Below the pieces are notes generated by a model that did no database searches, was not told the origin of the DNA, and was given only the letters and a program-made list of their open reading frames with translations. DNA of 42,872 nucleotides. Source: a virus. Its lineage: Duplodnaviria > Heunggongvirae > Uroviricota > Caudoviricetes. Where the stretch lies: the IMG/VR virus record IMGVR_UViG_2718217859_000008, positions 1 to 42,872 of that record. One strand, written 5' to 3'. Of this stretch, positions 30,378 through 38,511 are shown piece after piece. The stretch's first letter is position 1. The number at the start of each line of letters is the position of its first letter. The position numbers and the translations under genes are program-made.

Positions 30378-30533
30378 TTACTCCTCAGGTTCGTAAGCTG
30401 TGAAGACAGCGACCTCCGTCTGGCCGGTTCGGATTCGTACCTCGCAGAGGTCTTTCCTCGTTACCAGTGCCGTCACTATAACGGTTAAACAGATGACGAT
30501 CAGGGCGATTAACATCGCCTTTTGCTGCTTCAT
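30378..30533 (-). CDS. hok: Hok-family type I toxin (51 aa)
   Basis: MKQQKAMLIALIVICLTVIVTALVTRKDLCEVRIRTGQTEVAVFTAYEPEE matches HokD/RelF as recalled; AAGGAG 9 nt upstream of the ATG at 30531-30533. Confidence 0.9.
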   Translation of the reverse strand: MKQQKAMLIALIVICLTVIVTALVTRKDLCEVRIRTGQTEVAVFTAYEPEE

Positions 30534-30726
30534 AGCCTGCTTCTCCTTGCCTTTCGGCACGTAAGAGGCTAACCTACGTGTGCAAGTCATAGATATGGCC
30601 TCAGATTAATGTTAAGCGTCTTGCAGGACGCGTAATGTTAACTGGGGCTTTTCTCTGTCTGCCTTACGGCGGCATGCCCGAGGCAGATAGCCTCAAGCAC
30701 CCGCAGCAATTCTACTTAACTCTCGC

Positions 30727-36079: not shown

Positions 36080-36556
36080 ATGCTTAGTGGTAAAGACTTA
36101 GGCCGAGCGATAGAGCAGGCCATTAACAAAAAAATTGCATCAGGAGCCGTCAAATCAAAGGCGGAAATCGCACGTCATTTCAAAGTCCAACCACCATCAA
36201 TCCATGACTGGATTAAGAAAGGTTCGATAAGTAAAGACAAACTTCCAGAACTATGGCGTTTCTTTTCTGATGTGGTTGGTCCAGAGCATTGGGGGCTTAA
36301 CGAATACCCCATACCAACCCCATCCACTTCAGATACAAAAAGTGAACTTTTAGACATAAACAGCCTTTATCAAGCCGCCTCTGATGAAAAAAGAGCAATT
36401 GTGGCTTTCCTCTTATCTGGAAATGCTACGGAGCCTAGTTGGGTTGATCATGACGTTCGCGCCTACATTGCCGCAATGGAAATGAAGGTAGCTAACTATC
36501 TGAAAAATCAAGAATCAAAACGGAAAAGCCAGAACATCACCAAGACAGGAACTTAA
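36080..36556 (+). CDS. prophage repressor (CI/RacR-like HTH, 158 aa, no S24 peptidase domain)
   Basis: HTH (KAEIARHFKVQPPSIHDWIKKG); flanked on both sides by the same operator sequence; AGGAG upstream of the ATG; no Ser/Lys autocleavage module evident. Confidence 0.6.
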   Translation: MLSGKDLGRAIEQAINKKIASGAVKSKAEIARHFKVQPPSIHDWIKKGSISKDKLPELWRFFSDVVGPEHWGLNEYPIPTPSTSDTKSELLDINSLYQAASDEKRAIVAFLLSGNATEPSWVDHDVRAYIAAMEMKVANYLKNQESKRKSQNITKTGT

Positions 36557-37189: not shown

Positions 37190-37405
37190 ATGCAGAAACG
37201 AGAACCCGTCATCATCGCACCAGACTATACCGAGGATGAAATTTACGAATGGATGTGCGGAAAGATACGCGCCATTAATGACCTGAAGCAGGCCGCTGAC
37301 TACAAAGAGCGCCTCTCTAAAGAACTGGTGTCAGCGGAGCAGGATATTACCACTCTGGCAAAAAGCGCGGCATTAAACGTTTCGCGAGTGATTGAAAACT
37401 ACTGA
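37190..37405 (+). CDS. ydfC: YdfC-like protein (71 aa)
   Basis: MQKREPVIIAPDYTEDEIYEWMCGKIRAINDLKQAADYKERL; GAGGAA upstream. Confidence 0.55.
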   Translation: MQKREPVIIAPDYTEDEIYEWMCGKIRAINDLKQAADYKERLSKELVSAEQDITTLAKSAALNVSRVIENY

Positions 37406-37494
37406 CCAATGAGCTCAAGTAGTTCTCCGCAGATGAAGTGCGTGCGCCGGACACGGATAAACCTCCGGCATGCTCTTTAACAATCTGGATATTC

Positions 37495-37941
37495 CTAACC
37501 ACAAAGAAATCGCATCAATTTGGATTTTGTGGGCAACTTCTCTTGTTGTTCGATGGAGACGCCTATTTTGATCTGTGTTTTTAAGATCGCAATATCTTTA
37601 AGTGATGACCAAATATGATCATCTGTTTTTTCCAGAGTTTTTAACTGAATTTTCAATTCCGAATCAGAATATTTTTCTGCATCATCAAAAAGCTGCAAAT
37701 ATTCTGCGGATTTTCTCATGGCATTACCTGACTTTTGTCCGAATCCATAAATCGTTTGGACGGTTGCGATCACAACAATAAAAACGCCAGAAATTTCCGG
37801 AATGAATCCGCCAATGACAGATGAACCGAGGATAATACTCACTACTGAGAGAAGTTTATCGAGACGACCAGTCGCTACAGAAAACAGTTGCTCAAGAAAA
37901 TAGCCATATAAAATTCTGTCAAGAATATCATCCCGGTCCAT
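37495..37941 (-). CDS. two-TM membrane protein (148 aa), antisense to the early-left operon
   Basis: ATG at 37939-37941 with AGGTGA 7 nt upstream; two adjacent hydrophobic helices then a charged helical tail; resembles SLATT/Abi-type 2TM effectors by architecture only. Confidence 0.6.
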   Translation of the reverse strand: MDRDDILDRILYGYFLEQLFSVATGRLDKLLSVVSIILGSSVIGGFIPEISGVFIVVIATVQTIYGFGQKSGNAMRKSAEYLQLFDDAEKYSDSELKIQLKTLEKTDDHIWSSLKDIAILKTQIKIGVSIEQQEKLPTKSKLMRFLCG

Positions 37942-38007
37942 ACACCATCACCTGTTTGTGCTCTTTGCTCTGTCATATGATTTCCTTGGATCGTTGGGGA
38001 TATCCAG

Positions 38008-38013
38008 ATTATA
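38008..38013 (-). promoter_or_regulatory. candidate -10 element (TATAAT) for the 2-TM gene
   Basis: Minus-strand CTGTATAATCTGG about 65 nt upstream of the start codon; no good -35, but a perfect -10 with upstream TG. Confidence 0.4.
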
Positions 38014-38271
38014 CAGATTTCCTGTCGTTGGGGAATGACGGAAACCACCTCGCCTGACGTGGTTAAAAGCAGGCACACAACACGAAAGCGCACGGCGAAG
38101 TTCGTCTCACTGTACGGTGTCGTTAAATTTAATTCGACCGTGCGCTTCCGGTTGTGGCAATCCGCGAAATGGCGCGGCGGTAAGTATGGCGAGGCTATCC
38201 TTTCCTCGAGATAACACCGGGTTGCCAGGTTGACCATACGCCTGAGTGACAACCCTGCTGCAACAACCCAT

Positions 38272-38328
38272 GTTGATTACCTTTTGGCGGGTATCCGTTT
38301 TGCTTTCCCCGTGATACCCGCCCTTTTT
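38272..38328 (+). ncRNA. dicF: DicF-like sRNA with intrinsic terminator
   Basis: TTTTGGCGGGTATCCGTTTTGCTTTCCCCGTGATACCCGCCCTTTTT resembles E. coli DicF (UUUGGCGGUAUCAGUUUUACUCCGUGACUGCUCUGCCGCCCUUUUU) as recalled; 10-bp terminator stem 38286-38322 plus T5; directly upstream of dicB; 5' end approximate. Confidence 0.6.
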
Positions 38329-38511
38329 AAAGTGAATTTTGTGATGCGGTGAATGCGGCTCAGCGCACGCGGAACAGTTAAAAAGGCCAGTTGACTTCCG
38401 TATTGGTTCTTATGGGTGGGTTCTCTGTATCCGGCGTTAATTATTAACTGGTTAACGTCACCTGGAGGCACCAGGCACCGCATCACAAAATTCATTGTTG
38501 AGGACGCGATA

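Follow-up and report, generated by a model that had tools for sequence, protein, structure and literature searches.

INTRODUCTION

Genes that carry their own promoter and lie antisense to the lytic genes of a prophage are typical lysogen-expressed accessory loci (PMC7067206). A described gene of the early-left region is sieB, known from lambda, P22, and the Rac prophage of Escherichia coli K-12, whose product halts macromolecular synthesis midway in superinfection (PMC10461980). Here, we analyze a 148-amino-acid (148-aa) antisense gene in the early-left operon of a Rac/Qin-like prophage contained in a 42,872-nucleotide (nt) stretch of DNA (IMG/VR record IMGVR_UViG_2718217859_000008, positions 1 to 42,872; the whole stretch is termed the window herein). 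Judging from related loci, this gene normally follows a partner, a proline-rich micro-open reading frame (micro-ORF), with which it forms a pair; the window copy has lost that first member.

The window gene shares with sieB its slot, its orientation, and a homologous upstream module, and both genes encode small prophage membrane proteins. It is located between DUF1391, ydfB, and ydfC-like genes on one side and a dicF-like RNA and dicB on the other, and Rac sieB is correspondingly located between ydaF and kilS/kilR. The two differ in that their proteins have no detectable homology, that Rac sieB lacks an upstream micro-ORF, and that an abortive phenotype has been documented for SieB (PMC10461980).

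SLATT proteins are predicted pore-forming effectors of type I antiphage signaling systems based on cyclic oligonucleotides (CBASS) and of defense-associated reverse transcriptases (DRT), and they are needed for DRT10 defense (10.64898/2026.04.29.721553; PMC11381338). The SLATT effectors (SLATT_4/PF18186 of type I CBASS, SLATT_5 of DRT10/UG17, and SLATT_1/DUF4231) have an N-terminal helix, two adjacent transmembrane (TM) helices, and cytoplasmic helices, all of which are also predicted for the window protein. In contrast to these effectors, all SLATT scores are below threshold here, and a micro-ORF takes the place of the CD-NTase, SLOG, TIR, or reverse transcriptase partner; since no such partner is present, a SLATT-type trigger would have to be a different one at this locus.

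RexA (∼279 aa) and RexB (four TM helices) of lambda are likewise a lysogen-expressed, two-gene prophage exclusion system, in which the membrane protein is held to be under the control of a soluble partner. They differ from the pair described here in that no search revealed a sequence relation and in that the partner here has only 26 to 53 aa. The rex genes lie in the immunity/early-left region, where accessory loci are known to cluster (PMC7067206). The injection blockers SieA of P22 and gp15 of HK97 are also small inner-membrane proteins that are expressed from prophages and give the lysogen protection (PMC10461980). Their sequences are unrelated and their point of action is DNA entry, whereas the 148-aa protein is predicted to expose almost no periplasmic surface.

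RESULTS

The 148-aa gene and its micro-ORF partner

An earlier reading of the window, made from its letters alone (the sequence-only reading), had reported a 148-aa antisense gene between ydfC-like and dicF-like sequences, preceded by a ribosome-binding site. Both are present, and the ORF was annotated as a hypothetical protein by the Prokaryotic Genome Annotation Pipeline (PGAP) in E. coli 08-00022. As also stated in that reading, it is the only minus-strand gene of its block, which we find to extend from racR to int. The features of the gene and of its lost partner are as follows.

37495..37941, minus strand: gene for the predicted 148-aa SLATT-like inner-membrane protein (ORF list; PGAP coding sequence WP_000373329.1)
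37953-37948, minus strand: Shine-Dalgarno (SD) sequence AGGTGA of the 148-aa gene, 6 nt 5′ of the ATG at 37941
37949..37959, minus strand: junction of a 118-bp deletion, ACAAACAGGTG (alignment, columns 188-305 missing in the window)
37875..37976, minus strand: micro-ORF remnant, a 33-aa ORF (alignment with E. coli GB089 and 1303)

Among E. coli alleles, the ratio of nonsynonymous to synonymous substitution rates (dN/dS) of the 148-aa gene is 0.07 to 0.11, with 31 synonymous and 12 nonsynonymous substitutions (dN/dS, ∼0.09) between the window allele and the allele group represented by locus L020. A profile search against 1.84 billion representatives returned 146 clusters (50% identity, E ≤ 0.001), nearly all of them stand-alone proteins of ∼150 to 180 aa. 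These ratios and the 146 family clusters indicate that the gene is real and under strong purifying selection and that it is no chance ORF. The window allele differs from its closest intact relative by four nonsynonymous substitutions and one synonymous substitution, which are too few to argue for relaxed selection.

The pairing with a micro-ORF, which the sequence-only reading lacked, emerged from a comparison of 11 related loci: E. coli copies (including the L020 allele group), Providencia phage PSTNGR2lys, phage EKP1, prophages of Enterobacter, Salmonella, Klebsiella, and Yersinia, two Polynucleobacter-type loci, and a P2-like metagenome contig. All 11 carry a proline-rich micro-ORF of 26 to 53 aa that has its own SD sequence and ends 4 to 16 nt 5′ of the ATG of the main gene. 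The main proteins at these loci are only 20 to 60% identical to the window protein, and the micro-peptides keep a core like [IVM]P-x-K-x-x-RP-x-P-x-P, with N-terminal halves that vary freely. In E. coli GB089 and 1303, the intact micro-ORF has 48 aa (MTEQRAQAGGGNSTHKTVWDHIPEKNIRPKPSP(T/A)PSEERGNSNNQTSR). Just 5′ of the main start, the majority of the other E. coli copies contain 118 bp that the window copy lacks, and this DNA completes a 48-aa ORF (MTEQRAQAGGGNSTHKTVWDHIPEKNIRPKPSPTPSEERGNSNNQTSR). Between the two E. coli allele groups, the micro-ORF core shows four synonymous changes to one nonsynonymous change in frame, compared with 1:5 and 0:6 in the other frames, a pattern that fits coding sequence, although the numbers are small.

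The micro-peptides have no Pfam match. Those of E. coli, Salmonella, Yersinia, and Enterobacter are absent from a collection of 15 billion proteins, and these four versions have therefore apparently never been called by gene callers. The Providencia phage and EKP1 micro-peptides are present in the same collection as hypothetical proteins, and on the P2-like contig (L023), outside that look-up, the micro-peptide was called as a 53-aa gene. "Elizabethkingia phage EKP1" (L004; OM284015) carries enterobacterial lambdoid genes (Rz, DUF4222, and a Q-type antiterminator) together with a homologue of this Enterobacterales-centered family, and its host assignment may deserve a check.

In intact copies, the segment missing from the window is flanked by two 11-nt direct repeats (ACAAGCAGGTG); in the window copy, a 118-bp deletion between the repeats has destroyed the micro-ORF. 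The first seven codons of the remnant (MTEQRAQ) are native; a frameshift follows at the junction, 118 being no multiple of three, and the resulting reading frame crosses the start codon of the main gene and overlaps it. In intact copies, the TGA within the main-gene SD sequence AGGTGA is the stop codon of the micro-ORF, a layout typical of translational coupling. Because the micro-protein is gone and the remnant frame runs across the main start codon, the window copy is probably crippled, that is, weakened or deregulated, though its 148-aa ORF is intact. At least five complete genomes (the window type and at least four others) have a deleted micro-ORF together with an intact 148-aa ORF. E. coli 06-00048 (CP015229) carries a deletion-type and an intact copy in different prophages, at 1398698-1399398 and 2631842-2632506.

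Architecture and family relationships of the 148-aa protein

Two adjacent TM helices followed by a charged helical tail had been proposed from the sequence, and both hydropathy and structure prediction bear this out. The Kyte-Doolittle peaks lie at residues 30 to 48 and 41 to 61/50 to 68, there is no lysine or arginine across residues 30 to 68, and the tail (residues 69 to 148) contains 14 lysine plus arginine and 12 aspartate plus glutamate residues. The AlphaFold2 (AF2) model, computed from a 79-sequence alignment, is all-helical, with a predicted local distance difference test score (pLDDT) of 87.7 and a predicted template modeling score of 0.77; an earlier run on 7 sequences (pLDDT, 53) was discarded. 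Its helices span residues 3 to 44, 48 to 65, 67 to 86, 93 to 105, 113 to 126, and 138 to 147. A long N-terminal helix continues into TM1 and is followed by a three-residue turn, TM2, and four cytoplasmic helices, with the helices at 3 to 44 and 48 to 65 forming the hairpin. Hydropathy and the AF2 model thus agree with the layout of the SLATT superfamily, which consists of two adjacent TM helices, a very short loop, and cytoplasmic helices on both flanks.

In PHROGs, the window protein matches phrog_6315 (E = 6e-24), to which no function is assigned there, and nothing else. When the 79 relatives were scanned singly against NCBIfam, SLATT_4 was found in 29 (best E = 1.2e-5) and SLATT_1 in 10, and no unrelated family appeared in more than 3, leaving SLATT as the only recurrent signal. 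The SLATT_4 matches are colinear and span positions 4 to 104 of the 154-position profile. Among the same relatives, Pfam SLATT_4 was found in only 1, and PADLOC gave weak matches to RTasSLATT in 4 + 2 and to the CBASS 2TM effector model in 4. Two word-indexed family-profile searches (the second at E ≤ 10) returned no SLATT-annotated or otherwise named protein and nothing outside the family itself. In a Foldseek search of the AF2 model against the predicted viral structures of BFVD, annotated SLATT proteins headed the list, with template modeling scores of 0.47 to 0.68, and made up 10 of the top 22 matches, 8 of these 10 with a probability of ≥0.96; over the 10, the template modeling scores were mostly 0.43 to 0.68 and the E values only 1.1e-2 to 0.33. 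Nothing comparable to the model was found in the PDB.

The sieB position in Rac/Qin-like prophages

In all 11 related loci, the pair lies antisense in the early operon of a temperate phage, lambdoid or P2-like. In the window, it lies in a segment that differs from its surroundings in base composition and whose right edge is formed by a hairpin.

37469..38064, no strand assigned: low-GC segment without counterpart in K-12 Qin (alignments, base composition)
38043..38064, no strand assigned: hairpin AACCAC-N10-GTGGTT at the right segment edge, part of the module common to sieB and other payloads of the slot

This segment of ∼600 bp (roughly 37469-38064) stands in place of ∼33 bp of K-12 Qin in the alignment and has a GC fraction of 0.40, versus 0.51 for the window. 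The gene is missing from K-12 Qin, as the sequence-only reading had expected; its proposal of an insertion with its own promoter does not hold in the simple form, since the upstream module is shared with Rac sieB and with a further ORF in E. coli E308. In the K-12 Rac prophage, the interval from ydaF (DUF1391) to the small RNA kilS with the FtsZ inhibitor gene kilR contains no antisense gene other than sieB. The DNA upstream from Rac sieB is laid out as in the window, with a stretch like GCGCTTTCGTGTTGTG, a hairpin ACCAC-N10-GTGGT, and a −10 element flanked on both sides by copies of a short direct repeat; the hairpin/promoter modules of the two genes are homologous. No micro-ORF is found behind the Rac module, and because Rac sieB has the same kind of module without one, the micro-ORF belongs to the payload found in the window. 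Homology of the 148-aa protein itself to SieB was considered and rejected: hhalign of the family against Rac SieB gave a probability of 0.4%, and there was no match to PF14163, which Rac SieB matches at 1.5e-31.

Only the right-hand 60 bp (38040-38100) are matched in ∼2,000 of 5,426 complete E. coli genomes, which corresponds to the module without the 148-aa gene; the pair or a part of it occurs in 89 of the 5,426. In a Qin-like prophage of E308 (L024 2217-2465, minus strand), the same module precedes an unannotated antisense ORF of 82 aa with two hydrophobic segments (MSQPPINPLKNMKIDCWYKALTVVGAALFVF...), which has no Pfam match and is not similar to SieB. Both payloads are missing from K-12 Qin, whose 33-bp filler (L002 3130-3165) contains GGATATTTCC in a context like the DNA just 3′ of the stop codon of the window gene. 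Because of this resemblance, K-12 Qin may be a deleted, emptied state that has lost its payload, rather than one that never had it. These alignments indicate that Rac/Qin-like prophages have at the sieB position a slot in which a shared upstream module is followed by exchangeable membrane-protein payloads, and not the site of a unique insertion. The payloads seen so far are sieB, the 82-aa ORF of E308, and the pair of micro-ORF and 148-aa gene. The presence of the cassette in some and its absence from other collinear relatives, together with its deviant base composition, are those of a "moron," an accessory unit of a prophage.

The cassette is cut by an IS3 element in O145 strains and some O103 strains. 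In E. coli O145 RM9872 (L021), the IS3-family cut leaves ∼310 nt of the cassette, comprising the promoter, the micro-ORF, and the start of the main gene; in O103:H2 FWSEC0007 (L025), also with an IS3-family cut, the promoter region alone matches and lies beside an antisense 86-aa ORF of unchecked identity.

Promoter, hairpin, and repeats

The following elements surround the presumed start of transcription.

38013-38008, minus strand: putative −10 hexamer TATAAT (from the sequence)
37991..38000, minus strand: downstream direct repeat TCCCCAACGA, in the 5′ untranslated region (repeat search, family D3)
38025..38034, minus strand: upstream direct repeat TCCCCAACGA, over the −35 position (repeat search, family D3, spacing of 34)
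37993..38010, no strand assigned: 5′ arm of an inverted repeat, overlapping the −10 hexamer and the likely transcription start (repeat search, I1)
37482..37499, no strand assigned: 3′ arm of the inverted repeat, overlapping the stop codon (repeat search, I1; 18 nt, 89% complementary)

The sequence-only reading had named a perfect TATAAT with an upstream TG. The hexamer is there; the TG lies at −14/−13, one base off the canonical extended −10 element (TGnTATAAT). A consensus promoter scan of 37200-38500 returned no site at threshold, and no intrinsic terminator was found 3′ of the stop codon of the 148-aa gene. On paper, the promoter is therefore plausible, not strong. In an Rfam scan, neither the cassette nor its leader matched a known RNA; the AT-rich ORF gave nothing but snoRNA-type noise.

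The two copies of the direct repeat covary, reading CCCCAACAAC twice in Salmonella and Enterobacter and CACCACAACG twice in the Providencia phage, and the stem of the hairpin shows compensatory changes (ACTAC/GTAGT in Salmonella and AACCTCA/TGAGGTT in Providencia). Since a direct repeat (ACCCCTACAG/ACCCTTACAG) and the hairpin are also found 5′ of Rac sieB, the combination of hairpin and covarying repeat suggests a regulated promoter module.

The inverted repeat brackets the cassette with the core TAATCTGGATATCC. It is also found in L020 (2532-2553/3171-3192) and in Salmonella (L010, 4820-4833/5449-5462), and it is absent from the more distant loci. It could serve in pairing of the 5′ and 3′ ends of the mRNA, be an operator, or be a relic of cassette mobility. 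A mobile element resembling miniature inverted-repeat transposable elements was considered and not adopted, as the inverted repeat is missing in distant loci and the conserved unit extends past it.

The prophage and its neighboring genes

The whole window is identical to positions 1328224-1371095 (reverse strand) of E. coli 08-00022 (CP013662). The prophage is lambdoid and Rac/Qin-like, and its integration site adjoins potC; it encodes a holin, a lysozyme, and a spanin of its own. On the plus strand, the early-left gene order is racR, the DUF1391 gene, ydfB, the ydfC-like gene, the dicF-like RNA, dicB, the DUF1482 gene, an exonuclease gene, xis, and int.

36080-36556, plus strand: racR, in the early-left block
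37190-37405, plus strand: ydfC-like gene, left neighbor of the low-GC segment
about 38270-38328, plus strand: dicF-like RNA, right neighbor of the low-GC segment
38512-38694, plus strand: dicB, beyond the dicF-like RNA

The right-hand neighbor had been called dicF from the sequence; the copy is divergent. When it is aligned with K-12 DicF, 9 nt are missing and substitutions are numerous, and Rfam gave no DicF match, neither at the gathering score nor at E ≤ 10. It retains a terminator stem of 10 perfectly paired bp (GGCGGGTATC/GATACCCGCC, 38286-38322) with a T-run behind it. Between the dicF-like RNA and dicB lies an STnc100-like element (38335-38489, plus strand; 33.5 bits, below the gathering score of 47) that is also kept in K-12 Qin. 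Elsewhere in the prophage, at 25992-26166 and 30528-30702 (both on the minus strand), are a complete copy of STnc100 and, adjoining hokD, a sok antitoxin RNA.

DISCUSSION

The cassette described here would be a prophage accessory ("moron") unit that lies antisense in the early-left slot held in K-12 Rac by the abortive-infection gene sieB. In complete form, it would comprise a hairpin, a promoter bracketed by a covarying direct repeat, the proline-rich micro-ORF, and a gene of ∼150 aa whose product, in the window a 148-aa protein, should form a tight two-helix membrane hairpin with both ends in the cytoplasm. We propose that lysogens transcribe the cassette at a time when the lytic operon around it is repressed, and that the membrane protein would stay inert until triggered by a superinfecting phage. 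The triggered protein might then disturb the inner membrane, by depolarization or by a pore, and the infection would be aborted, with the micro-protein acting as regulator, sensor, or neutralizer of the membrane protein. On the evidence of the predicted membrane hairpin, the slot, and the antisense orientation, the chances that the cassette is a lysogen-expressed abortive-infection or exclusion module at the inner membrane, with the 148-aa protein as its effector, seem to us evenly balanced. The more specific idea, that the micro-protein and the SLATT-like protein are a self-contained two-gene antiphage system, which lambdoid and P2-like prophages would carry in the sieB slot as one of several exchangeable payloads and in which the micro-protein would be sensor or gatekeeper, is more tentative, and we lean against it as it stands.

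Several results weigh against the effector reading. Its SLATT component, which the sequence-only reading had already suggested, is borne out by the layout and by a recurrent weak profile hidden Markov model (HMM) signal, and by no SLATT model above threshold. The window protein has no Pfam match at E ≤ 10 and no SLATT or other family match in NCBIfam, and neither it nor its relatives significantly match any defense model in PADLOC. For 10 relatives inspected singly, SLATT_4 gave at best 25.2 bits against a cutoff of 55 and SLATT_1 gave 17 bits against 41; no curated SLATT HMM (Pfam SLATT_1-6/DUF4231; NCBIfam NF033632, NF033634, and others) was reached at its cutoff. No Foldseek E value is better than 5e-3, and the fold itself, a two-helix hairpin with further helices, is simple. 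At none of the 11 loci was a partner of the SMODS/CD-NTase, SLOG, TIR, or reverse transcriptase type found; the micro-ORF alone is the conserved partner there, the neighbors being ordinary early phage genes of the opposite strand, and the known activation logic of SLATT proteins would therefore not apply. The best −35 candidates match only two to three of the six consensus positions; the TATAAT is kept by E. coli and the Providencia phage and has degenerated in Salmonella and Enterobacter. Finally, because the at least five genomes without the micro-ORF keep the main ORF, the micro-protein would probably not be an essential antitoxin. We accordingly call the 148-aa protein SLATT-like, either a remote relative or a look-alike, with membership in the superfamily unproven.

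The alternative that survives best, though we regard it as unlikely, is nonlethal superinfection exclusion, in which the inner-membrane protein would block phage DNA entry as do P22 SieA, HK97 gp15, and T4 Imm. In its favor, the gene occupies an accessory slot of a prophage and its predicted product is small and located in the inner membrane, SieA-type exclusion proteins being inner-membrane and prophage-expressed (PMC10461980), and the tolerated loss of the micro-ORF in several genomes is easier to explain with a nontoxic blocker. A predicted periplasmic loop of ∼2 to 3 residues, however, would expose almost nothing to an injection apparatus, the sole family signal points to SLATT effectors, and the known occupant of the slot, SieB, acts late and not at entry (PMC10461980).

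The tight coupling of a small upstream ORF to a membrane-protein gene, in which the two are paired in all 11 loci and the micro-ORF stop codon lies inside the SD sequence of the main gene, would also suit a toxin-antitoxin-like addiction pair, in which a membrane toxin and a labile proline-rich antitoxin stabilize the prophage and have no dedicated antiphage role. We consider such a pair distinctly improbable: the micro-ORF is missing, and the 148-aa ORF intact, in the window and in at least four further complete genomes, whereas an essential antitoxin should not be dispensable unless translation of the effector is lost too, and the Pfam and NCBIfam scans of the window protein gave no similarity to known toxin-antitoxin families.

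Improbable to a like degree is that the micro-ORF yields no functional protein and serves as a leader that regulates through translational coupling or proline-dependent pausing, so that the cassette would consist of a single membrane effector gene. The overlap of its stop codon with the SD sequence and the free variation of its N-terminal half are in keeping with a leader, as are stretches like the RPTPPPP of Salmonella and Providencia; proline runs of this type are classical pause sites dependent on elongation factor P. Yet the E. coli, Klebsiella, and Yersinia versions have no three consecutive prolines, the distance from motif to stop codon ranges from 3 to ∼15 codons, which a fixed stalling geometry would not tolerate, and the peptide motif is conserved over very divergent DNA.

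Least likely of the four alternatives, and very improbable because of sporadic distribution (89 of 5,426 complete E. coli genomes, versus ∼2,000 with the flanking module), antisense orientation to the lytic operon, and presence in both lambdoid and P2-like phages, two unrelated types, is that the gene serves the lytic cycle of the phage itself as a holin-like, kil-like, or lysis-timing factor: it does encode a small membrane protein beside the cell division inhibitors dicB/dicF, but its GC content is deviant and the prophage already has holin, lysozyme, and spanin genes.

Literature searches on the protein accession, on SLATT with prophage or superinfection exclusion, and on related terms returned no description of the gene, the micro-ORF, or the pair, and none is included in PADLOC v2. 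Prophage membrane exclusion genes and SLATT effectors are known kinds; what is new is the combination of a stand-alone SLATT-like protein with a proline-rich micro-protein, together with the sieB position as a payload slot. Should the cassette have no phenotype, it would reduce to one more conserved hypothetical prophage membrane protein. Natural variants are at hand, namely, the peptide-deleted copy of the window, intact copies, IS3-cut copies, and strain 06-00048 with both of the former types. The payload-slot pattern also offers a simple guide by which more exclusion genes of prophages, and micro-ORFs that lack annotation, could be found.

The activation of SLATT effectors continues to be described as an open question (10.64898/2026.04.29.721553), and a stand-alone SLATT-like protein whose only conserved partner has 26 to 53 aa would be a minimal, genetically tractable case of activation. 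If the proposal is true, the two-gene system would give SLATT-type effectors an activation route that is independent of nucleotide second messengers and of reverse transcriptases.

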